Source: Minisyncoccota bacterium (GTDB lineage Bacteria; Patescibacteriota; Minisyncoccia; UBA6257; JAGOQP01). Taken from it: a stretch of 64,000 nt of DNA. The notes under the pieces were generated by a model. That model did no database searches and had not been told where the DNA came from. It saw nothing but the letters and a program-made list of their open reading frames with translations. The stretch spans positions 2,259 through 66,258 of the forward strand of contig JAGOQP010000002.1 in NCBI GenBank assembly GCA_017991375.1, given 5' to 3'. This document shows, one piece after another, positions 11,299 to 55,740 of the stretch. The translations under genes and the position numbers were made by a program. Position 1 is the first letter of the stretch; each line of letters starts with the position of its first letter.

Positions 11299-11371
11299 TA
11301 CCCCCGAGAGGAATCGAACCTCTATCTATCCCTTAGGACGGGACTGTTCTAATCCGTTGAACTACGAGGGT
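11299..11371 (-). tRNA. tRNA-Arg (anticodon CCU)
   Basis: Reverse-complement: acceptor ACCCTCG/CGGGGGT, D-arm GTTC-AACGGATTA-GAAC, anticodon stem GTCCC/GGGAT with loop GTCCTAA, T-arm AGAGG-TTCGATT-CCTCT; 73 nt. Confidence 0.75.
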
Positions 11372-13013
11372 TTATAAGCAAAAAACACGTTGAAAACAGC
11401 CCTTGGGTATTGTATGCTAAGTGCGCATAAAAATTCAAATACCATGGGCCTATGGTATACCGGTAGAACGCCTCCATGGCATGGAGGAGAACGGGGTTCA
11501 ATTCCCCGTAGGTCCACCAAAGTTGATTAGTCGCCTCGCTCGGCGCTTCGCGCCTCGCTTCGGCAGGCATTTCCGCAAGGAAATGCCAAGGGTTTTTGAA
11601 ATCAATCGTCAATTTTCCCGCCGCAAGGCGGCGGTTCGAGCCGATGGTTTTGAGAAAATTTTTCATTTCCGAAAAATTTTCAGACAAAATGAGATTTTTG
11701 GCTTGGTTGGCCTCTAAAATCCAATTTCGGGTGAGTTCGAGCCAATGATTTCCTTTTCGCTCAAAATCCGATAATTTTTCCTCAATATCTTTCTTTTCCG
11801 CCATTAGTTTGTTTTTCTTTTCCTGAAATTCCGCCAGTTCAAAACTGCCTTCAAGATAGCCGTCCATTAAGCGGTCTATTTTTGTTTTTATGGCGGAAAG
11901 TTCGGTTTTAAGATTTTGAGCGAAAAGGTCTGATGTTTGGCGGTTTTCGCTTTCCCATTCTTTCACTTTGCAAAGATATTTTTCCCGCCAAACATCGGGC
12001 AAAGAAACTTTTTGACAAATCTCTTTTACTTGCTCGGTCAAAACTTCTTCCCGCAAAAAGCGAGCTTGAGAACAATTTTGCGTTTTGCTTTTGTGGGTGC
12101 AACGATAATAAACAAATTTTAGTCCGCTTTTCTTGATGTGCCGTTCGGCTGTTATGGCATATCCGCACTCGCCACAAACCGCAAAATTGAGAAATTGAAA
12201 GTTTTTCGGTCCTCGCTTTTTGCGGGGCTTGCCGTTTGTGATTAACGCTTCTTGTATTTGGTCAAAAAGTTTCTTTGAAATCATTGGCTTATGCGATCCT
12301 TGATGAATTTCGCCACGATAGCGAAAATGTCCGTAATAGAATGGATTAGTCAAAATTTTCTGAATGGTGGAAAGATGAGGCAGTTTCCCGTCTTTGCCAA
12401 CCAAGCCAAGAGAAAACATTTTGCCTTGAATAGCGGTAAGCGTGTAATTGCCAGTGGCAAAAGCCCGCAAAACTTCTTTCACTTTGTTAAAAGTTTTTCT
12501 ATCGGGTTCTATAGTTCGCAGACGAGGTTCGTTGAAATATCCGAGCGGGGCTTTTGCCGATAGCTCACCGCGTCTTATTTTCTGCCTGATTCCGCGCAAA
12601 ATGTTTTCTCTTAAATTGTCGGTGTAATACTTTGCTTGTCCGAAGGCGACAGACAACATAAATTTTCCCTGCGGTGTCGCTTCAAACCAAAATGTGGGGA
12701 ATTTTAGCGATTCAATCTTTTTTGTGTCCACAAGGTAAATTACTTTTCCGCCGTCTATTGAATTTCTAGCCAATCTATCGGGATTCCACGCTAAAATTCC
12801 CGAAGCGTTGCCTTTTTCAATTTCCGAAAGCATAAAATTAAAAACTTCTCGGCCCGGCTCTTTGGCTGTTTTGCTTTCGTAAAATTCTTTGACGACAAAA
12901 AGATTGTTTTGTTTGGCAAACTCGCGAAGTTCCGTGAGCTGGGCCTCAATAGACAAAACTTGTCTTTCCTCGTCCTCGCTTGATTTGCGACAATAGATAA
13001 AGTATTTTATCAT
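11349..13013 (-). CDS. large serine recombinase (resolvase/invertase N-terminal domain + recombinase domain + zinc ribbon + coiled coil)
   Basis: N-terminus MIKYFIYCRKSSEDEERQVLSIEAQ...AWNPDRLARN (serine-recombinase catalytic domain); CGECGYAITAERH...YYRCTHK zinc ribbon. The ORF has no stop until 11349, so it reads through IR-A, antisense tRNA-Ala and into tRNA-Arg; the true C-terminus is probably upstream (~455 aa to the IR boundary). Confidence 0.85.
   Translation of the reverse strand: MIKYFIYCRKSSEDEERQVLSIEAQLTELREFAKQNNLFVVKEFYESKTAKEPGREVFNFMLSEIEKGNASGILAWNPDRLARNSIDGGKVIYLVDTKKIESLKFPTFWFEATPQGKFMLSVAFGQAKYYTDNLRENILRGIRQKIRRGELSAKAPLGYFNEPRLRTIEPDRKTFNKVKEVLRAFATGNYTLTAIQGKMFSLGLVGKDGKLPHLSTIQKILTNPFYYGHFRYRGEIHQGSHKPMISKKLFDQIQEALITNGKPRKKRGPKNFQFLNFAVCGECGYAITAERHIKKSGLKFVYYRCTHKSKTQNCSQARFLREEVLTEQVKEICQKVSLPDVWREKYLCKVKEWESENRQTSDLFAQNLKTELSAIKTKIDRLMDGYLEGSFELAEFQEKKNKLMAEKKDIEEKLSDFERKGNHWLELTRNWILEANQAKNLILSENFSEMKNFLKTIGSNRRLAAGKLTIDFKNPWHFLAEMPAEARREAPSEATNQLWWTYGELNPVLLHAMEAFYRYTIGPWYLNFYAHLAYNTQGLFSTCFLLINPRSSTD
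11446..11519 (+). tRNA. tRNA-Ala (anticodon GGC), CCA encoded
   Basis: Acceptor GGGCCTA/TAGGTCC with the G3:U70 Ala identity pair; anticodon stem CCTCC/GGAGG with loop ATGGCAT; T-arm CGGGG-TTCAATT-CCCCG; ends ACCA. Confidence 0.8.
11514..11637. repeat. IR-A left copy (124 bp)
   Basis: Reverse complement of 13156-13279 with 2-3 mismatches; contains hairpins GGCATTTCC-gcaa-GGAAATGCC and CCGCCGC-aa-GGCGGCGG; outer end overlaps the tRNA-Ala CCACCA. Confidence 0.9.
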
Positions 13014-13155: not shown

Positions 13156-13279
13156 GAACCGCCGCCTTGCAGCGGGAAAATTGGCGATTGATTTCAAAAA
13201 CCCTTGGCATTTCCTTGCGGAAATGCCTGCCGAAGCGAGGCGCGAAGCGCCGAGCGAGGCGACTAATCAACTTTGGTGG
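13156..13279. repeat. IR-A right copy (124 bp)
   Basis: See 11514-11637. Confidence 0.9.
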
Positions 13280-13561
13280 TGTTTGTTGGAAAAAGTCAGA
13301 ACTCATTTTGAACAAAATCCCGACTAATTCGCTCCGCCCCGCCGCCGCTCGCTTCGCTCGCTGTTCCGCAAAAAAAGTTTTCTTCGCATTTTTTGATTTG
13401 GCGCGCGATTTCTTTTTCTTCTAAAAGGAAAACAAAACTTTTTTGCGAGACCCTGCTCTGAACGAGCAGGGCGGCGGGGCTTCGCTTCGGCTCGGGCGAG
13501 GCGGAATTCCCCCCACACCCCCCTTCCGCCTCGCCCTCGCTTTGGACGCCGACGGAATTTG
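13278..13561. repeat. IR-B left copy (284 bp, GC-rich)
   Basis: Near-perfect reverse complement of 16141-16424; GC about 60% versus about 35% for the enclosed cargo; contains hairpins GAGGCGGAA-N17-TTCCGCCTC and GCCCTGCTC-gttca-GAGCAGGGtC; abuts IR-A. Confidence 0.9.
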
Positions 13562-16140: not shown

Positions 16141-16424
16141 CAAATTCCGTCGGCGTCCAAAGCGAGGGCGAGGCGGAAGGGGGGTGTGGGGGGAATTCCG
16201 CCTCGCCCGAGCCGAAGCGAAGCCCCGCCGCCCTGCTCGTTCAGAGCAGGGTCTCGCAAAAAAGTTTTGTTTTCCTTTTAGAAGAAAAAGAAATCGCGCG
16301 CCAAATCAAAAAATGCGAAGAAAACTTTTTTTGCGGAACAGCGAGCGAAGCGAGCGGTGGCGGGGCGGAGCGAATTAGTCGGGATTTTGTTCAAAATGAG
16401 TTCTGACTTTTTCCAACAAACACC
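16141..16424. repeat. IR-B right copy (284 bp)
   Basis: See 13278-13561. Confidence 0.9.
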
Positions 16425-16480
16425 ACTGCTACTCCGCCGCAACGAGATCAGTAAACCCAGGAAAACTATTCATGTTTTTT

Positions 16481-16522
16481 CTCTACCACAAATCTCCACG
16501 ATCGTGGAGATTTGTGGTAGAG
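16481..16522. repeat. 42-bp perfect palindrome CTCTACCACAAATCTCCACGATCGTGGAGATTTGTGGTAGAG
   Basis: Self-complementary; second copy (36 bp) at 32075-32110; both followed by AAGTGTTA. Confidence 0.95.
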
Positions 16523-16543
16523 AAGTGTTAGGTAGTTCACGTG

Positions 16544-26204: not shown

Positions 26205-26356
26205 CGGAGTATCCACGAGCAAGCAAATAATTTTGCTTGCGTCAGGAATCGAACGCCGGAGCTTGTGCGAGTGAGCACACGAGCACGCGAGGCGGTGCCT
26301 AGCCCGAGTTGAGCGACGGCGAAACGAGAGGCGAAGGAGATTTCCTAGCGGGGGTA
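26205..26356 (+). repeat. tRNA 3'-associated conserved structured element ending in a duplicated tRNA-Arg 3' end
   Basis: Hairpin GCAAGCAAATAATTTTGCTTGC; core GAATCGAACGCCGGAGCTTGTGCGAGTGAGCACACGAGCACGCGAGGCGGTGCCTAGCCCGAGTTGAGCGACGGCGAAACGAGAGGCGAAGG; then TTTCCTAGCGGGGGTA, which equals the last 16 nt of the tRNA. The same core lies after tRNA-Tyr (51172-51373); a covarying version lies after tRNA-His (27152-27310). Confidence 0.8.
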
Positions 26357-26436
26357 CGAACGAGTGGAAAGTGAAAAGTGGAAAGTTAAACGAATAAAAG
26401 CAAAGCAAATTGAAGGATGGAAAGTTAAACGATTGG
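26357..26436 (+). repeat. GGAAAGTTAAACGA-type short direct repeats
   Basis: CGAACGAGTGGAAAGTGAAAAGTGGAAAGTTAAACGAA...GGATGGAAAGTTAAACGA; the same block occurs (reverse strand) beside tRNA-Arg(CCU) at 11130-11298. Confidence 0.8.
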
Positions 26437-26663
26437 TCGTTGGTCATTGATTCTTAACCGCAAGACACTCATCTTTAATCGAGAGAGATGGTAGTTAGTT
26501 TTAAGATCAATCCTTGCGTAAGCACTGTTTTCGTATTAGAATACGTTTTGCGTATTTTTATTAATCCCAGTCACTGGTTGTCTGTTGTTAGTCGTTTGTT
26601 GTCTGCCTACGGCAGATCCTGAGCGTAAGTCGAAGGGTAAGTTACTCATATGCCGCGGTAGCT

Positions 26664-26699
26664 CCCTCCGTCGTCCATTTGTGATGGACTATGGAAGGG
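26664..26699 (-). repeat. REP-like hairpin element, copy 3
   Basis: Reverse complement CCCTTCCATAGTCCATCACAAATGGACGACGGAGGG; immediately preceded by a 13-nt tRNA-Phe 5' fragment (GCCGCGGTAGCTC). Confidence 0.7.
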
Positions 26700-26765
26700 C
26701 ACGCAGTGTGCTCCTAGTGTTTGTGCCGTTGTCTGTTGTTAGTCGTTTGTTGTTTGTTGCTATAT

Positions 26766-26872
26766 GCCGCGGTAGCTCAGTGGGTTTAAAGCAAACGATT
26801 TTGCTTTAAACGGGAAATCCAAAAGATATATTGGATTTTCCCTGGAAGAACAGAAAACCGAAGGTCTGCGAT
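26766..26872 (+). repeat. tRNA 5'-associated element: duplicated tRNA-Phe 5' end (18 nt) plus conserved two-hairpin module
   Basis: GCCGCGGTAGCTCAGTGG, then GTTTAAAGCAAACGATTTTGCTTTAAAC (hairpin), GGGAAATCCAAAAGATATATTGGATTTTCCC (hairpin), TGGAAGAACAGAAAACCGAAGGTCTGCGAT; about 90% identical module at 51838-51948 led by the tRNA-Thr 5' end. Confidence 0.8.
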
Positions 26873-27974: not shown

Positions 27975-29999
27975 ATGGCTTCAAAAGAGGATAAAAAGCA
28001 AGAAAAGGTGTCATCATACAGTGCCAAGGATATATACGTTTTAGAGGGCCTGGAACCAGTGCGAAAGCGCCCAGGTATGTACATCGGATCAACCGGTCCC
28101 GATGGATTACACCACCTTATTTGGGAAATTGTGGACAACTCAATTGATGAAGCAATGGGTGGTTTTGCGCACACTATTCGCATTGAATTGCTTAAGGACA
28201 ACATGGTAGCAGTAACCGACGACGGTCGTGGTATTCCGGTTGACATTCATCCACAAACAAAGAAATCAGCATTAGAAACGGCGCTTTGTACTCTTCACGC
28301 GGGAGGAAAATTTGGAGGTGACTCCTACAAAGTATCGGGAGGACTTCACGGCGTGGGCGTTTCGGTAGTAAACGCGCTCTCTACGTGGATGAAAGCGGAA
28401 GTTCAAAAAGACGGCGGAATATGGGTTCAGGAATATAAACGTGGAGTGCCACAATATAATGTAAAAAAAATAGGAAAGACCGACAGCACCGGAACAAAAA
28501 TCATATTTCAGCCCGATCCTGAGATTTTTAATAAGATAGAATTTGATTGGAAAAAAATAATAGAACATCTTCGTCAGCAAGCGTTTTTGGTAAAAGGTGT
28601 GTCTATTGAAGTAATAGACGCCCGCGAGGACGTTCCCAACTACTACGCTTTTAAATTTGAGGGCGGACTTCTCTCCTTTTTGGCGTATCTGAATGAATTT
28701 GAGGACTCGGTTCAGGTAACGCCATTTTATGTAAACAAAGAAATGGACGGCATTCAAGTAGAAGCTGCGTTTACGTACAACAACGATGCTGATATGCAAG
28801 AGTTGAGCTTTGCGAATAATATCTACACACCAGAAGGCGGTATGCATCTTACTGGATTTCGTACGGCGCTCACGCGGGTACTTAATGATTACGCGCGCGA
28901 GAACAACTACATCAAAGACAAAGAAGAAAATCTTACCGGAGACGACGTGCGTGAAGGAATTGTGGCAATTGTGTCGGTAAAAATTACCGAACCGCAATTT
29001 GAAGGACAGACAAAAGCAAAACTCGGAAACCCGCCGGCACGTACCGCGGTAGATGCCGTTGTGTCGGAGGCGCTTAAAGAGTTTTTACAAAAATATTCAG
29101 GTGATGCGCGTGCGGTTATTGGAAAATGTTTACTCGCGGCCAAAGCGCGTCGTGCCGCGCGGGCGGCCAAAGAAACCGTTTTGAGAAAGGGCCCACTTGA
29201 AGGGCTTGCGCTCCCTGGAAAACTTGCTGATTGCACCTCAAAAGATGCCTCTATCTCTGAGCTTTTTATCGTTGAGGGAGATAGCGCCGGCGGTTCGGGA
29301 AAGCAAGGGCGTGATCGTCGTACGCAGGCGATATTACCGCTACGCGGAAAGATACTAAACGTAGAAAAAGCGCGATTAGACAAAATGCTCGCCAATAACG
29401 AAATTAGGTCGTTGGTAATCGCTTTGGGAACGGCTATTGGAAATGATTTCACGCTTGAGAAGCTTCGGTATCACAAAATTATCATTATGACCGATGCTGA
29501 TATCGATGGCGCCCATATTCGCACGTTGCTTTTGACGCTCTTTTATAAATACTTTAAAGATGTGGTAGAGCAGGGATTTTTGTATGCCGCGCAACCGCCG
29601 CTCTTTAGAGTGCAATACGCCAAAGAGGTGCGTTACGCGTACGATGAAGCAGAAAAAGATCGTATAGTGGAAGAGATACAAAAAATTCGCTCCGCGAAGA
29701 AAAAAACAAAGGGTGAAGAAAAAAATTCAGAGATGGAGATTGTTGAGTCCGATGAAACAACGCCGGAGACAAACGAAAAAGGCATTTTGATTCAGCGATA
29801 TAAAGGTCTGGGAGAAATGAACCCGGATCAACTATGGGAAACCACTATGGATCCCGAACGTCGAGTGCTCAAGCAAATTACAATCAGGGACGCGCAGGAA
29901 GCCGAGCGTATGTTTGATGTTTTAATGGGTCAGAAAGTCGAACCAAGAAAACATTTTATTCAAAGTCGCGCGTCAACGGTGCAAAATCTTGACATCTAG
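27975..29999 (+). CDS. gyrB: DNA gyrase subunit B
   Basis: GLEPVRKRPGMYIGSTGPDGLHHLIWEIVDNSIDEAMGG; TOPRIM and C-terminal domains; 674 aa. Confidence 0.95.
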   Translation: MASKEDKKQEKVSSYSAKDIYVLEGLEPVRKRPGMYIGSTGPDGLHHLIWEIVDNSIDEAMGGFAHTIRIELLKDNMVAVTDDGRGIPVDIHPQTKKSALETALCTLHAGGKFGGDSYKVSGGLHGVGVSVVNALSTWMKAEVQKDGGIWVQEYKRGVPQYNVKKIGKTDSTGTKIIFQPDPEIFNKIEFDWKKIIEHLRQQAFLVKGVSIEVIDAREDVPNYYAFKFEGGLLSFLAYLNEFEDSVQVTPFYVNKEMDGIQVEAAFTYNNDADMQELSFANNIYTPEGGMHLTGFRTALTRVLNDYARENNYIKDKEENLTGDDVREGIVAIVSVKITEPQFEGQTKAKLGNPPARTAVDAVVSEALKEFLQKYSGDARAVIGKCLLAAKARRAARAAKETVLRKGPLEGLALPGKLADCTSKDASISELFIVEGDSAGGSGKQGRDRRTQAILPLRGKILNVEKARLDKMLANNEIRSLVIALGTAIGNDFTLEKLRYHKIIIMTDADIDGAHIRTLLLTLFYKYFKDVVEQGFLYAAQPPLFRVQYAKEVRYAYDEAEKDRIVEEIQKIRSAKKKTKGEEKNSEMEIVESDETTPETNEKGILIQRYKGLGEMNPDQLWETTMDPERRVLKQITIRDAQEAERMFDVLMGQKVEPRKHFIQSRASTVQNLDI

Positions 30000-32074: not shown

Positions 32075-32110
32075 TACCACAAATCTCCACGATCGTGGAG
32101 ATTTGTGGTA
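32075..32110. repeat. 36-bp palindrome TACCACAAATCTCCACGATCGTGGAGATTTGTGGTA (copy 2)
   Basis: Same element as 16481-16522; located at the distal end of the GC-rich insert. Confidence 0.95.
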
Positions 32111-34145: not shown

Positions 34146-35084
34146 CTAATATTTCAAAAAAGCATTCACTAACGTGAGTGCTTTTTTTGTTTCTCCAATT
34201 TCAATCCAGTTGATGGTGTTGTTTCGTGAAAACCACGTCATTTGGCGTTTGGTGTATTGTTCTATATCTTTGGATAGTCCGTTGATATATTCTTCCTTTG
34301 TTATATCTTTCTTAAGTAATCGAGCTGTCCATTTATACTCAAGTCCAAACTGCTCAAGTCGTTTCCACGAAACGCCATCGCGATGTATTTTACTAACCTC
34401 GTTAATCATGCCGGCTTTAATGCGACGTTCAAGTCGCTTGTGTATTCGCTCTGACAAGATTTGTTTTGGTGCGTGTATGCCAATAAAAAGAGTGTGGTAG
34501 GGGGATGTGGCGTGCAACTGAGGAACTGGTTTTTTTGTTGTTATAACAATTTCAAGGGCTCGGATAAGGCGTCTTCGATTGTGGAAATCTATAGTGCTCG
34601 CGCGGCGTGGGTCTTTTTTTAAGAGAAGATCAAAAAGATCGCCTGTTGATTTTTTTTCAAGTTTTTTTCTCAAGACAGTGTCTGCTTTCACATTAGGGAT
34701 GTCCACGCCATTAACGAGCGTGTCTATGTAAAGCCCTGTGCCGCCGCACACAATAGGTATTATATGTTTCTGGTGTAGTCGCTGTACTATATTTTGTGCT
34801 CGTTTTTGAAACTGGGCAACGGAAAACGTTCTAGTAGGGGAGGCAACATCAAGAAGATGGTGGGGAATTCCTCGCGCCTCTTTTTTGGTTATTTTTCCCG
34901 CGGTGAGATTAAACCCTTTGTATACCTGTCTGGAGTCCGCAGAAATAATCTCTGCTCCGGCAATGCTAAATTGTTTTTTGTGGCGAATTAAAAAACGCGC
35001 GAGTAAAACAGCTAAATCTGATTTTCCAGTCGCTGTTGGTCCGCACACAACAATAATAGGGGGTTTTTGTTGAAATATTGACAT
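34146..35084 (-). CDS. miaA: tRNA dimethylallyltransferase
   Basis: P-loop IIVVCGPTATGKSDLAV; 312 aa. Confidence 0.9.
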   Translation of the reverse strand: MSIFQQKPPIIVVCGPTATGKSDLAVLLARFLIRHKKQFSIAGAEIISADSRQVYKGFNLTAGKITKKEARGIPHHLLDVASPTRTFSVAQFQKRAQNIVQRLHQKHIIPIVCGGTGLYIDTLVNGVDIPNVKADTVLRKKLEKKSTGDLFDLLLKKDPRRASTIDFHNRRRLIRALEIVITTKKPVPQLHATSPYHTLFIGIHAPKQILSERIHKRLERRIKAGMINEVSKIHRDGVSWKRLEQFGLEYKWTARLLKKDITKEEYINGLSKDIEQYTKRQMTWFSRNNTINWIEIGETKKALTLVNAFLKY

Positions 35085-35169
35085 TATATTAAAAATATGC
35101 TAGCATATAATCACGAAAAGTTCAAGAACGTACACAAAAACAGGGCAAAAAAACGCAAGGAGGAAAATC

Positions 35170-35331
35170 ATGTTGGAAGTACTTTTGCTGTCGCTCCCGA
35201 TCACAGCTCCTCTCCTTATCGGTGGGGGGCTGGTCGTCCTCTTCGTCAGAAAGAGGGCGATCACCACGCTGCGCCGGAGGAAGAACAGCCGGCACAGCAA
35301 GAGGCCCCACCAGAAGAAGCTCGTGATCTAG
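35170..35331 (+). CDS. 53-aa GC-rich small membrane peptide with polybasic tail (type I toxin-like)
   Basis: MLEVLLLSLPITAPLLIGGGLVVLFVRKRAITTLRRRKNSRHSKRPHQKKLVI; AAGGAGG 6 nt upstream; rho-independent terminator downstream; not on the >=60-aa ORF track. Confidence 0.55.
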   Translation: MLEVLLLSLPITAPLLIGGGLVVLFVRKRAITTLRRRKNSRHSKRPHQKKLVI

Positions 35332-35351
35332 ATTCACGGGCACAGAACACA

Positions 35352-35383
35352 AGAGCCGCGGCGCACGCCACGGCTCTTTTTGT
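35352..35383 (+). terminator. rho-independent terminator
   Basis: AGAGCCG-loop-CGGCTCT followed by TTTTTGTT. Confidence 0.6.
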
Positions 35384-35440
35384 TGCCGAGCTTATTTGTA
35401 GTGGTATACCATCAAAATTTTCTATATTTCTATATCTACG

Positions 35441-35480
35441 TATGTTACAAAAATTAGCGATCGCTAATTTTTGTAACATA
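35441..35480. repeat. 40-bp perfect palindrome TATGTTACAAAAATTAGCGATCGCTAATTTTTGTAACATA (copy 1)
   Basis: Self-complementary; copies also at 36189-36224 and 55707-55740. Confidence 0.95.
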
Positions 35481-35585
35481 TAAGCGCATAGGAAAAAGAA
35501 TATAAAAGATGGATAAAAATATACACAGTGGTATGATATAAATAGAAGGATAATACAAGAGACAAAAAATCGTCTTAATGATATT

Positions 35586-36155
35586 ATGAGACGCGTCTCG
35601 CGAATCGAGTTTTTGAAAAATGTGCATAGTGGTAATTTTTCAAATGCATTTACGGCATTCCTGTTTTCGTTTGGGTCGGTCGATATTCTACGAAAAAATT
35701 TGAGATCTATTGGAAATAATAGTTCGATAGATTGTCATGATGATGAGAGAAGAAAACTGAAAAGAAGATTTGATGTGGTTATGTGCCGTCTTAAAAAAGA
35801 TGGGATGATAAAAGAAGATGGGCATATAACAAAGAGGGGAATTATTTTTTTATCAAGTATTATTGGTCGTGAAAGTAAATATTTACCGACGCGATCATAT
35901 CAACATGGCAAAAGTGACACAATAACATTAGTCACATTTGATATCCCAGAAAAATATAAGAGATATCGCGAATGGTTACGGTTTGTTTTGCGAGATATGG
36001 GATTTTCGATGCTTCAGCGTAGTGTGTGGATAGGTAAAGTAAAAATTCCAAAGGAATTTTTGACGGATCTAAAAAACACTAAAATGATTCCATTCGTAGA
36101 AATAGTTGAAATCTCAAAACTCGGCTCTGTAGAAAGAATTTCCAATGCGGGATAA
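35586..36155 (+). CDS. winged-helix-like N-terminal domain fused to a Cas2-like C-terminal domain (orphan; PaaX-like architecture)
   Basis: C-terminus ITLVTFDIPEKYKRYREWLRFVLRDMGFSMLQRSVWIG aligns with Cas2 N-terminal beta-alpha-beta core (compare [38 protein letters not shown]); N-terminal ...RKLKRRFDVVMCRLKKDGMIKEDGHITKRG looks like a wHTH; no cas1/cas9 or CRISPR array in the window. Confidence 0.6.
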   Translation: MRRVSRIEFLKNVHSGNFSNAFTAFLFSFGSVDILRKNLRSIGNNSSIDCHDDERRKLKRRFDVVMCRLKKDGMIKEDGHITKRGIIFLSSIIGRESKYLPTRSYQHGKSDTITLVTFDIPEKYKRYREWLRFVLRDMGFSMLQRSVWIGKVKIPKEFLTDLKNTKMIPFVEIVEISKLGSVERISNAG

Positions 36156-36188
36156 TTTAAAAAAGTGATAAAAAAAGAAAACAAAGAG

Positions 36189-36224
36189 TGTTACAAAAAT
36201 TAGCGATCGCTAATTTTTGTAACA
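36189..36224. repeat. 36-bp perfect palindrome (copy 2 of GTTACAAAAATTAGCGATCGCTAATTTTTGTAAC)
   Basis: 34 bp downstream of the Cas2-like gene stop. Confidence 0.95.
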
Positions 36225-36356
36225 TGTGTAAAATTTGCCCTGCCATCAATTATGATAAGCTACAATAAATAATAGAAGACCATAGTAAACCATAAAAATA
36301 GAGCTTGATCGATACAAGCTCTATTTTTATAAGTGTTTTGGTGTTTCCGTACTGTT

Positions 36357-38216
36357 TTACAAATGTTTTTTGATCTCGTTCATAATATGATCACGCGTTG
36401 CGTCAATACTCATTTGTCCCAGTTGTCCTTTATGGTAACTGCGCACACTCACTGTATTTGTTTCTTTTTCTTTATCTCCCACTACCAGAATATAGGGCGC
36501 CTTGCTTAATTCTGCTTCACGAATGCGTTTTCCAAGCGTTTCATTCGCCTCGCTTATGGTGACGCGAATATCGTCTTCGCGTAATGCGCGCGCAACCGTA
36601 TCGGCATATGACGCGTGTTTCTCCGATATGGGGAGTATGGTTGCTTGAACGGGAGACAGCCATACGGGGAACGCGCCCGCGTAATGTTCAATAAGAAGGC
36701 CGATGAATCGTTCATATGATCCAAAAAGCGCGCGGTGCAACATGTACGGCTGTTCCGTTTTCCCCTCGTTGTTTATGAAATTCATTGCGAAACGAGAAGG
36801 AAGGTTAAAATCAAACTGTAGCGTGGAGCATTGCCATTGACGTCCGAGCGCGTCTTTTATTTTAAAATCCAGCTTAGGACCATAAAACGCTGCTTCGCCA
36901 ATTTCTTCGGTGAAATGCAATCTTTTTTCTTGTGCCACGGATCGTAATACGCTTTCTGCGAACCTCCATCCACTATCGTTGCCAACATACTTGGTTTTAT
37001 TCTTTGGATCGCGGAGCGAGAGATAAACCTGCACATCGTCGATAGAAAATCCAAAAGACGTATAGATGAACAAAATAAAATCAATTACGCGCTTGAGTTC
37101 GTCTTCGACTTGATCTTTGCGGCATATAATATGCGCGTCATCTTGGGTAAATCCTCGCACTCGTGTAAGCCCAGAAAGCTCTCCTTTCTTTTCAAATCGG
37201 TATACCGTGCCACACTCAGCCCAGCGGAAGGGGAATTCACGATACGAGCGCAGTTGGCCTTTATAGATTTGCACATGGAATGGACAGTTCATCGGCTTGA
37301 GTAGATATTCTTCGGACGCGGCAATTTTCTTTTTTTGTTGTCGCTCTTCAAGCGTTTGTCCCACTTCGAGCGGGGGATACATGGATTTATTGTAAAATCC
37401 CCAGTGTCCTGATGTTTCCCACAATGTTCTGCTACCAATGTGTGGCGTACGCACTAAATCATACCCTCCCTTTAGATGTTCCTTGTACCAAAACTCTTCA
37501 ATAACGCGCCACAATAGCGCTCCTTTTGGATGCCAGAGGGGGAGCCCTAGCCCCACCGCATCATCAAGATGAAACAGATCCAACTCTTTTCCTAGTTTTC
37601 GATGGTCTCGTTTTTCGGCTTCAGCAATACGTTCCAAGTACACATTGAGCTCTTTTTGGTTTACAAAAGCCACTCCATAAATACGAGCGAGCATCGCGTT
37701 CTTTTCATCTCCTCTCCAATATGCTCCCGCAATAGAACGAAGTTTAAATGCGAGCGGATCAATTTCGCTCGTGTGGGTTACGTGAGGACCAGAGCATAGA
37801 TCAACAAATATCTCCTGAGCATGCTTTCCCGTTCCACGTATGGTGCTGTATATTGAAATACTCTTTTTTGCTTTTTTTAGCTCGCTGATTAATTCCTTTT
37901 TATACGGAGCATTTTTAAACAACGTCGTTGCGCGCGCGGGAGTGATAATCTTTTTGGAAAACGTTACATTTTGTTGAATAAGTTCGCGCATTTTGTTTTC
38001 AATCCATTCCAAATCGGTATCGGAGATTGATGAGCCCTTGGTCTTAGCATACGCCGCAAAATCAAAATCATAATAAAACCCATTATCAATTACTGGCCCG
38101 ATAGCGAGTTTGACTTTCGGCCATCGCTCAAGCACAGCTGTCGCCATAAGATGCGAGAGAGAATGCCTTATTTTTTCAATTTGTTTTTCGCCGTTTGTAG
38201 ATATTTTTTTATTCAT
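36357..38216 (-). CDS. thrS: threonyl-tRNA synthetase
   Basis: Class II aaRS core and C-terminal anticodon-binding region ...HRALFGSYERFIGLLIEHYAGAFPVWLSPVQ; 619 aa. Confidence 0.9.
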   Translation of the reverse strand: MNKKISTNGEKQIEKIRHSLSHLMATAVLERWPKVKLAIGPVIDNGFYYDFDFAAYAKTKGSSISDTDLEWIENKMRELIQQNVTFSKKIITPARATTLFKNAPYKKELISELKKAKKSISIYSTIRGTGKHAQEIFVDLCSGPHVTHTSEIDPLAFKLRSIAGAYWRGDEKNAMLARIYGVAFVNQKELNVYLERIAEAEKRDHRKLGKELDLFHLDDAVGLGLPLWHPKGALLWRVIEEFWYKEHLKGGYDLVRTPHIGSRTLWETSGHWGFYNKSMYPPLEVGQTLEERQQKKKIAASEEYLLKPMNCPFHVQIYKGQLRSYREFPFRWAECGTVYRFEKKGELSGLTRVRGFTQDDAHIICRKDQVEDELKRVIDFILFIYTSFGFSIDDVQVYLSLRDPKNKTKYVGNDSGWRFAESVLRSVAQEKRLHFTEEIGEAAFYGPKLDFKIKDALGRQWQCSTLQFDFNLPSRFAMNFINNEGKTEQPYMLHRALFGSYERFIGLLIEHYAGAFPVWLSPVQATILPISEKHASYADTVARALREDDIRVTISEANETLGKRIREAELSKAPYILVVGDKEKETNTVSVRSYHKGQLGQMSIDATRDHIMNEIKKHL

Positions 38217-51171: not shown

Positions 51172-51373
51172 CATAATAAAATTATTTTCCTTCACGCAGT
51201 GAGCGTGAGGGAGTAATTTTATTAAGTTGGTCAAGAAAAAACCAACTGCTTGGTTTTTGAGTGAGAGTCGAACGCCGGAGCTTGTGCGAGTGACCACACG
51301 AGCACGCGAGGCGGTGGCTAGTCTGAGTCGAGTGACGACGAGACAAGAGGCGAGGCCGACTCTCACCCTACCC
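51172..51373 (+). repeat. tRNA 3'-associated conserved element ending in a duplicated tRNA-Tyr 3' end
   Basis: Hairpin CCAAGAAAAAACCAA-ctgc-TTGGTTTTTG; core GAGTCGAACGCCGGAGCTTGTGCGAGTGACCACACGAGCACGCGAGGCGGTGGCTAGTCTGAGTCGAGTGACGACGAGACAAGAGGCGAGGCC; then GACTCTCACCCTACCCA, equal to the last 17 nt of the tRNA. Confidence 0.8.
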
Positions 51374-51521
51374 ACTCGACGCGCCCTGAGTAAAATCGAA
51401 GGGCTTGCTCGTGGCAAGCCACATTCTATGAGTGAATTTCAAACACGCACGATAATCAGTTGTTATGAATTTTGTTGGTTCCTTGTTGTTAGTCGTGGGT
51501 GGTTAGTCGTTAGTTATATAT

Positions 51522-51545
51522 GCCATAGCTCAGCTGGGTTTATGG
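51522..51545 (+). repeat. truncated tRNA 5'-fragment + GTTTA module
   Basis: GCCATAGCTCAGCTGG-GTTTATGG; a decayed copy of the 5'-associated element upstream of tRNA-Thr(UGU). Confidence 0.5.
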
Positions 51546-51588
51546 ATTTTATTGTTAGTTGTAAGTAGTTAGTTGTTAGTCAATGCAT

Positions 51589-51660
51589 GCCACCTTAGCT
51601 CAGCGGTAGAGCAACTGTTTTGTAAACAGTAGGTCCCCGGTCCGAATCCGGGAGGTGGCT
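51589..51660 (+). tRNA. tRNA-Thr (anticodon UGU)
   Basis: Acceptor GCCACCT/AGGTGGC, anticodon stem ACTGT/ACAGT with loop TTTGTAA, T-arm CCCGG-TCCGAAT-CCGGG. Confidence 0.8.
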
Positions 51661-51837
51661 CAACTATCTGGACTTTTTTTATAATTTGAATACAATTATA
51701 ACGTGGTTCCAGATGCTTTATCGCTTGCTGTCTGTCTACGGCAGGTTCTGACTGGTGGTGAGTATAATCGAACCAGTAAGTGAAACGCATTGAAGGGTAG
51801 GTGATCGGTAGTTAGTTGTAAGTTGTTAGTTACATAT

Positions 51838-51948
51838 GCCAATGTAGCTCAGCTGGGTTTAAAGCAAACAATTTTGCTTTAAACGGGAAATCCAAAAAGA
51901 TATATTGGACTTTCCCCGGAAGAGCAAGCAACCGAAGGTATTGCGATG
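51838..51948 (+). repeat. tRNA 5'-associated element: duplicated tRNA-Thr(GGU) 5' end (19 nt) plus conserved two-hairpin module
   Basis: GCCAATGTAGCTCAGCTGG, then GTTTAAAGCAAACAATTTTGCTTTAAACGGGAAATCCAAAAAGATATATTGGACTTTCCCCGGAAGAGCAAGCAACCGAAGGTATTGCGATG; the intact tRNA begins 47 nt later. Confidence 0.8.
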
Positions 51949-55706: not shown

Positions 55707-55740
55707 GTTACAAAAATTAGCGATCGCTAATTTTTGTAAC
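55707..55740. repeat. 34-bp perfect palindrome GTTACAAAAATTAGCGATCGCTAATTTTTGTAAC (copy 3)
   Basis: Identical core to the palindromes flanking the Cas2-like gene. Confidence 0.95.

Follow-up and report, generated by a model that had tools for sequence, protein, structure and literature searches.

Small PaaX-like proteins with a Cas2 fold in Patescibacteria and the long palindromes that bracket their genes

PaaX is the phenylacetyl-CoA-responsive repressor of the paa catabolon (PDB 8A39, 3L09). In REP/RAYT systems (repetitive extragenic palindromes, REP, and REP-associated tyrosine transposases, RAYT), an HUH-Y1 (IS200/IS605-like) transposase is accompanied by tens to hundreds of repeat copies per genome. 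The PaaX of Escherichia coli, which binds TGATTC-N27-GAATCA (with a similar site in Pseudomonas), consists of a winged helix-turn-helix (wHTH), a dimerisation motif and a C-terminal domain, and represses its own Px promoter by RNA polymerase exclusion (PMC9493321). We describe here a gene for a 189-amino acid (aa) protein (35586-36155, + strand) in a 64-kb stretch of the genome of an uncultivated, ultra-small Minisyncoccota bacterium (contig JAGOQP010000002.1, positions 2,259 to 66,258; hereafter, the window), which joins a wHTH-like region to a Cas2-fold (PaaX_M) domain and which is bracketed by two copies of a long perfect palindrome. Sequence comparisons indicate that this protein represents a large family, apparently specific to the Candidate Phyla Radiation (CPR), of truncated PaaX-like Cas2-fold proteins predicted to bind DNA, with genes bracketed by their own long CGRYCG-centred palindromes, and we consider it probable that the 189-aa protein binds the flanking palindromes and autoregulates. 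No earlier description of the protein family or of the palindromes was found in the searchable literature.

The 189-aa protein compared with Cas2 and PaaX

The open reading frame (ORF) contains the stretches VTFDIP, YREWLRFVL and GFSMLQRSVW, on which the initial annotation had based a Cas2-type similarity of the C-terminal half. This similarity is real. The Pfam model PaaX_M ("central Cas2-like domain", PF20803) matched aa ~108-184 (35907-36137, + strand) with an E value of 4.7e-10 and 39.9 bits against a cut-off of 24, several PADLOC Cas2 models also matched (best, 9e-7), and TIGR01573 (cas2) scored 24.9 bits, barely above its cut-off of 24.5, so that the genes of this family are at risk of automatic mis-annotation as Cas2. 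CRISPR_Cas2 (PF09827) reached 22.3 bits, slightly below its gathering cut-off of 23.8. The identity to real Cas2 proteins was 22-25%, and a single-sequence PDB search with the C-terminal domain returned nothing useful, a profile being needed. In the profile-based comparison, Asp119 (codon 35940-35942), invariant in 18/18 family sequences, aligned with the Asp that ends strand beta1 of Cas2 (VVYD in 3exc, FFD in 6jhz), a position that we take to be that of the metal-binding catalytic residue of Cas2. The protein thus has the ferredoxin-like beta-alpha-beta-beta-alpha-beta fold of Cas2, its beta1 Asp and the pattern vvxxD-I/V...R..L...G...Q.SV, but it differs in that the fold is fused to a DNA-binding head. 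In agreement with the initial annotation, the 64-kb window contains no cas1, cas9 or CRISPR-like array; none of ten large or neighbouring window ORFs scanned is a Cas protein, nor were there Cas genes in three homologue contexts with Pfam annotation. Since neither cas1 nor an array accompanies it, the protein is not a Cas2 in the functional sense.

The relationship to PaaX is also partial. The probable winged-helix DNA-binding region (aa ~48-100; 35727-35885, + strand), in which T82 and G85 are invariant and L69 is near-invariant, gave weak matches to AspA wHTH profiles and no match to the PaaX N-terminal winged-helix Pfam model (PF07848). The PaaX_C effector domain (PF08223) was not matched either, the protein ending at aa 189 just past the Cas2-like domain, and the score against the PaaX equivalog model TIGR02277 was 13.7 bits, far short of the cut-off of 264.55. 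While PaaX has ~300-316 aa, the CPR protein has 189, and no paa genes occurred among the neighbours seen, the contexts being of a housekeeping type (miaA, thrS, gatB, gyrB, dnaE and others in the window). Because length, C-terminal domain and paa context all fail, the CPR proteins lie outside the PaaX equivalog family. HUH or transposase domains were absent from the 189-aa protein, for which PaaX_M and Cas2 were the only matches.

The NCBI product for the same gene (P0001) is shorter (151 aa) and starts at an internal TTG; the nearly identical NCBI protein belongs to a Candidatus Pacebacteria metagenome-assembled genome (MAG). The ATG at 35586 is backed by N-terminal conservation with the closest homologue (locus L011; homologous loci are cited by such numbers), and the 151-aa call is probably too short.

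Palindromes beside the gene, in the window and across the family

An exact search with the 34-mer GTTACAAAAATTAGCGATCGCTAATTTTTGTAAC (palindrome A) found three copies in the window, at 35444-35477, 36190-36223 and 55707-55740, while none of 100 dinucleotide-preserving shuffles contained a match, even when 3 mismatches were allowed. This bears out the initial annotation, in which identical palindromes were said to bracket the gene, with a third copy at 55707. Including their flanks, the perfect palindromes measure 40 bp for the upstream copy (35441-35480, proposed operator 1), 36 bp for the downstream copy (36189-36224, proposed operator 2) and 34 bp for the third one. The first lies 105 nt from the ATG, the second follows the stop codon by 33 nt, and the third, a candidate additional binding site, is placed between tRNA-Trp (- strand) and a PCMT methyltransferase gene (+ strand). 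The initial annotation had overlooked a second palindrome family, B (TACCACAAATCTCCACGATCGTGGAGATTTGTGGTA), which has the same CGATCG centre as A and carries ACAAA in the same register. It is represented by a 46-bp perfect palindrome at 16479-16524 and a 36-bp one at 32075-32110, 169 nt upstream of gatB, and these two copies have a short oriented right-hand flank in common, AAGTGTTA. Within each family, the three A copies and the two B copies are 100% identical over 34-36 bp. The window held no cognate gene for palindrome B and no second member of the family of the 189-aa protein, and a search for such a cognate gene past the ends of the window met only short Logan contigs. Exact searches yielded 0 matches for palindrome A in GTDB representative genomes and 0 for palindrome B in JGI metagenomes.

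We searched an 18-member family profile against the GTDB representative genomes and obtained 69 loci that, together with three further contexts and the window, made a set of 73 non-redundant loci. Palindromes were scored when they had at least 14 matched pairs, no more than 2 mismatches and either no loop at the centre or one of 2 nt. Within 200 bp of the gene, such a site was present upstream in 42/73 loci, downstream in 44/73, on both sides in 32/73 and on neither in 19/73; a relaxed scan disclosed weaker sites in 3 of these 19. The density was 2.28 palindromes per kb beside the gene and 0.053 per kb in the remaining 620 kb, and only ~10 non-flanking sites were found in 684 kb. Therefore, instead of being common in the genome and unconnected to the gene, the finding that the initial annotation had named as adverse to its proposal, the palindromes are enriched 43-fold beside the family genes. 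The sites are 28-64 bp long (median, 40), and their median distances are 28 nt to the start codon on the upstream side and 24.5 nt from the stop codon on the downstream side. The two copies of one locus are near-identical, and the arms differ from locus to locus; where a genome has 2-3 paralogues, as several do, these mostly go with distinct palindrome types. Since palindromes recur beside the gene across the 73 homologous loci, the bracketing is a conserved property of the family rather than a local accident, and it follows that the palindromes are most likely the protein's own binding sites and that the protein most likely represses its own gene.

The family comprises at least 779 clusters at 50% identity (E<=1e-30), and its 150 best representatives are all 174-225 aa long. 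All but one of the 69 loci come from genomes titled as Patescibacteria/CPR or as unclassified bacterial MAGs, the named hosts being Paceibacterota, Wolfebacteria, Nomurabacteria, Liptonbacteria, Jorgensenbacteria, Colwellbacteria, Harrisonbacteria, Brennerbacteria, Portnoybacteria, Azambacteria, Uhrbacteria, Doudnabacteria and MAGs labelled Saccharibacteria. The exception (L031, JAUYPG010000078.1) is from a MAG titled Nanoarchaeota archaeon, and in it a CGGCCG-centred palindrome (2185-2224) immediately precedes the gene; it could be a binning error or a genuine occurrence outside the CPR.

Clustering of the ORFs next to the 73 loci revealed recurrent contexts. In one, PNPase, NYN, S15 and XerC-like genes are followed by the family gene and then by SPFH and pilin-like genes; in another, shared by the window and Nomurabacteria loci, the order is gyrB, the family gene and convergent thrS; in a third one, the gene stands between Obg and gatB. 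Further copies lie beside MetRS or beside a large LTD-domain protein. The most recurrent neighbours over the set were XerC-like, SPFH, ThrS, MetRS, PNPase, Obg and pilin-like genes, and for several paralogue lineages synteny is kept across genera. These results show that the family is vertically inherited, and they bear directly on the idea that palindrome, gene and palindrome form a small mobile or invertible cassette, moving or flipping together. Such a cassette would be suited by the identical palindromes at its two ends, which are direct and inverted repeats at once, and also by locus L022, where the conserved XerC-like and SPFH neighbours are in place but the gene has the opposite orientation (no palindromes are detectable at this locus). 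However, besides the synteny across genera, searches of 50,697 phage records, of 72,556 plasmids and of the IMG/VR contigs returned no homologues, there was neither a target-site duplication nor a shared flank past the palindrome, and eight independent assemblies of the Liptonbacteria locus were collinear and in one orientation. On these grounds we rejected the cassette, to which we give hardly any credence. A high-copy REP-like repeat was rejected as well, in view of the low background density, the empty GTDB and JGI searches, and the restriction of the Liptonbacteria palindrome to its own locus, the only one found across all JGI metagenome contigs. Separately, the Liptonbacteria family gene in a second JGI sample (L086 versus L087, 4159-4199) had a 41-bp deletion in the coding region, which would be a frameshifted variant or an assembly difference.

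Promoters, site architecture and the proposed autorepression

We searched for -10 boxes from -10 to +30 nt of the palindrome's gene-proximal edge, with three control flanks for comparison. On the gene-proximal side of the upstream palindrome, a good -10 box was present in 78% of the loci, against 41-49% in the control flanks, and strong boxes were found in 14/41 versus 8/129 cases (Fisher p=2e-5). The -10 box touches or overlaps the upstream palindrome in most homologous loci, and in no fewer than 11 loci it is just 6-7 nt away from the ATG, so that these would produce leaderless mRNAs with the palindrome at the promoter. Three Nomurabacteria orthologues (L018, L024 and L053) have the same pair of arm mismatches, which makes an extended -10 (TGGTAAACT / TGGTAAGAT), and this promoter-creating asymmetry of the arms is conserved across species. 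The link with the promoter is also relevant to the possibility that the protein is a structural DNA-binding factor (centromere-like, nucleoid-organising or roadblock, by analogy with ParB-parS and AspA) with high-affinity sites that include the ends of its own gene. The presence of sites on both sides of the gene and of a few dispersed ones, some within ORFs or between convergent genes, places in which a promoter would not be expected, would agree with that role, and so would the weak AspA matches and the lack of promoter enrichment at the downstream copy. Nevertheless, we find it improbable, since the upstream copies are tied to the gene's -10 box, several paralogues per genome with mostly distinct sites are typical of transcription factors, and no partner ATPase or conserved neighbour was seen throughout the synteny groups.

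The sites have a common architecture. In 81/87 of them the centre is CGATCG (48), CGGTCG (12), CGGCCG (11) or CGACCG (10), that is, CGRYCG, usually with an A before it, and many arms bear an outer box of the TTAC(A/T)A or ACTAT type. Counting from the centre, the two arms disagree in 27% of cases at position 1 (the R/Y pair) and in 0-1% over positions 2-4; the mismatch is 4-12% over positions 5-8 and 0-7% over positions 9-17 (0-1% for 12-15), and it rises to ~65%, the random level, beyond position 21. This bipartite profile is exactly that expected for a protein contacting the centre and an outer box, and is unlike that of an evenly paired stem.

It might be thought that the palindromes act as RNA hairpins in 5' or 3' untranslated regions (in stability, processing or termination) and that the protein binds or cleaves its own mRNA. 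Some Cas2 proteins have been reported as RNases. Moreover, the downstream copy of the window must be transcribed, since it is placed between the stop codon and the terminator, and some downstream copies (L033, L039, L057) have A-tract/T-tract extensions like those of bidirectional terminators. Yet the mismatches (GT/TG, 16; AC/CA, 17; other, 48) reveal no G.U bias on the sense strand, and many upstream copies overlap or precede leaderless -10 boxes and hence fall outside the transcript. Taken with the non-uniform symmetry, the absence of a G.U bias led us to set the RNA hairpin aside as very unlikely. Rho-independent termination by the palindromes was rejected too: they are loop-less and A+T-rich, a T-tract (at least 6 T in the 8 nt past the stem) follows only 16% of the downstream copies, and in the window a separate canonical hairpin of the bidirectional intrinsic-terminator type (A-tract, 16-bp stem, T-tract), overlooked in the initial annotation, lies downstream of the second palindrome at 36292-36330 and is common to the gene and convergent thrS. 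The bipartite mismatches, the absence of a G.U bias, the tie with the promoter and the rarity of T-tracts favour the recognition of duplex DNA by a symmetric protein.

In this respect the CPR sites resemble the published PaaX site, a 39-bp dyad read by two widely spaced heads, which is the geometry inferred for the CPR family: the dyads span 34-46 bp and carry outer boxes placed symmetrically at 9-17 bp on either side of the centre, and the upstream site is at the promoter. They differ from it in being full-length perfect palindromes with a CGRYCG centre and in standing at both ends of the gene. Because the dyad geometry matches, the CPR proteins may be regarded, by analogy, as "mini-PaaX" repressors, with the DNA-reading chassis of PaaX minus the ligand domain. 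According to this proposal, the Cas2-fold domains would dimerise, as they do in PaaX and Cas2, and hold two DNA-reading heads far apart, so that one dimer could read a dyad of ~34-40 bp in which each half-site would combine a centre conserved throughout the family (A-C-G-R) with an outer box that is specific to the locus and lies 9-17 bp from the dyad. With the upstream palindrome at or beside the promoter, binding would repress the protein's own gene. The downstream palindrome would be a second operator: it may be an auxiliary site for looping, or it may shield the small gene, as a roadblock, against transcription that converges on it or reads through. Additional targets would be the third A copy and possibly the family-B sites. 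Operators at a promoter with a second identical or similar one hundreds of bp away are found in lac (O1/O2), gal (OE/OI) and deo. In contrast to these, the second CPR site brackets the whole regulator gene, and tetramerisation or looping is a purely inferential element of the model. The centre-to-centre spacing of the copies was 625-858 bp (median, 700), and helical loop phasing was rejected because no 10-11 bp periodicity was observed in the upstream-downstream spacing.

Several observations weigh against autorepression through the flanking palindromes. In the window, the best promoter-like site for the gene (35510-35537, + strand; TGGATA-16-TATGAT with TG, an extended -10 predicted by consensus scan) starts 30 nt past the first palindrome and its -10 box is 52 nt away without overlap; repression there would therefore have to rely on an adjacent but weaker TATAAG element or be exerted from a distance. 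The downstream copy, a putative auxiliary operator, roadblock or insulator, has no promoter enrichment in homologous loci, and ~22% of the family members are without a nearby palindrome. The symmetry is also more perfect than operator selection requires: 38/87 sites are flawless over their full length, spacer included, and the A copies, although 0.7 and 20 kb apart, are 100% identical, which is beyond ordinary operator selection. Among the differences between upstream and downstream copies, 42 are mirrored in both arms and 38 are not. An invariant Asp119 at the Cas2 catalytic position would be superfluous in a pure dimerisation module. Covariation of the wHTH region with the arms had the expected direction but was weak (partial rho 0.10, compared with 0.02 for the Cas2-like domain, the pairs being non-independent and the p-values consequently invalid). 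Finally, two dispersed copies lie inside ORFs: one in-frame in a UvrC-C-terminal-like ORF (L011, 6516-6553), where the L032 homologue is ~24 aa shorter, and another past the signal peptide of an LTD-domain protein (L045, 3693-3724).

Part of this evidence would suit a REP/RAYT-like system, in which a metal-dependent nuclease with a Cas2 fold cuts or nicks its cognate palindrome and the palindromes are non-autonomous elements copied or maintained by the protein. Like RAYT genes, the CPR gene is single-copy and vertically inherited, with cognate palindromes on both sides, repeats specific for most paralogues within a genome and extra copies elsewhere; the invariant Asp119, the identity among the A and B copies, the copies within the uvrC-like and LTD-protein ORFs, the mirrored arm differences and the oriented flank shared by the B copies point in the same direction. 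On the other hand, the CPR protein has no HUH/Y1 transposase domain, the copy number is about two orders of magnitude lower, as illustrated by the few non-flanking sites and the single-locus Liptonbacteria palindrome, and the palindromes, which are perfect and lack a loop, show a conserved centre and a bipartite symmetry that is not even along the stem. The upstream copy is, moreover, integrated with the promoter, and the conserved promoter-creating asymmetries show that the upstream sites are old regulatory sites. As to the mirrored changes, quasi-palindrome template-switch correction is a known mutational process able to produce them without a dedicated enzyme, and it could be a source of symmetry without selection; active upkeep of the symmetry by the protein is the more novel alternative. 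Considering all this, we regard a REP/RAYT-like system as unlikely. We deem it quite unlikely, too, that the Cas2-fold domain, besides being a dimerisation scaffold, has a site-specific nuclease or nickase activity directed at the CGRYCG centre of the protein's own palindromes (for instance, when extruded as hairpins), which would keep them perfectly symmetric and occasionally copy them to new sites. If true, this would mean a REP/RAYT-like domesticated system built on a Cas2 homologue that recognises ~36-bp palindromic repeats without CRISPR, and it would bear on the first association of Cas2 with palindromic repeats. Thus, of the three roles entertained in the initial annotation, the PaaX-like regulator is supported, the mobile cassette is rejected, and the nuclease keeps the small probability just given.

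Surroundings of the gene and meaning for the family

The window has a G+C content of 43.6% and a housekeeping content that includes gatB, miaA, thrS, dnaE, gyrB (27975-29999), nusG, an SMC-type ATPase (SMC_N domain) and ten tRNAs. The left end of the local layout is formed by miaA (34146-35084, - strand), and the right end by convergent thrS (36357-38216). Just upstream of the first palindrome there is a compact small gene (35078-35385) made up of a strong, near-consensus promoter (TTGACA-17-TAGCAT with TG, 35078-35106), an AAGGAGG Shine-Dalgarno sequence in front of a 53-aa ORF (35170-35331) and a G+C-rich terminator (35351-35385). Its product would have one hydrophobic helix followed by a very basic tail, and the 128-aa ORF that overlaps it (35097-35483) is probably spurious.

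Elsewhere in the window, a large serine recombinase gene (11349-13013, - strand; Resolvase, Recombinase and Zn_ribbon_recom domains) is flanked by 124-nt inverted repeats of 98% identity (11514-11637 and 13156-13279) abutting tRNA-Ala. Immediately beside it, an unknown ORF lies together with GreA-like, MFS and Na/Ca-exchanger genes between inverted repeats of 286 nt and 100% identity (13276-13561 and 16141-16426). The segment 11349-16426 could be invertible or integrated, or an assembly artefact. Blocks of 44-89 nt with 79-98% identity are repeated beside tRNA genes at 26246-26865 and 51265-51939, the 5' start of tRNA-Phe (ATATGCCGCGGTAGCTCAGTGG) is duplicated at 26762 and 26920, and the spacers flanking tRNAs contain recurring low-complexity motifs of the GTTGTTAGT and AAAGATGA types.

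Two observations were made on homologous contigs. Two Wolfebacteria loci carry parS-like palindromes (TGTTTCACGTGAAACA) ~3.7 kb upstream of the family gene (L040, 888-913 and 1034-1079; L079, 1050-1077 and 1202-1235). The contig of L051 opens with a 142-bp perfect palindrome (1-142) centred on GCGATCGC, most likely because the assembler folded back at the upstream palindrome, an indication that loop-less perfect palindromes can break or corrupt assemblies.

A large protein family is now paired with a precise and testable DNA target, a dyad of ~34-40 bp with a CGRYCG centre and a locus-specific outer box. For Patescibacteria, whose genomes are tiny, the first function proposed for this family would be autorepression at promoters that are often leaderless, and its regulons could be predicted directly from metagenome-assembled genomes. 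The Cas2 fold would then have found a second use apart from CRISPR, at the core of a dimer that binds DNA.

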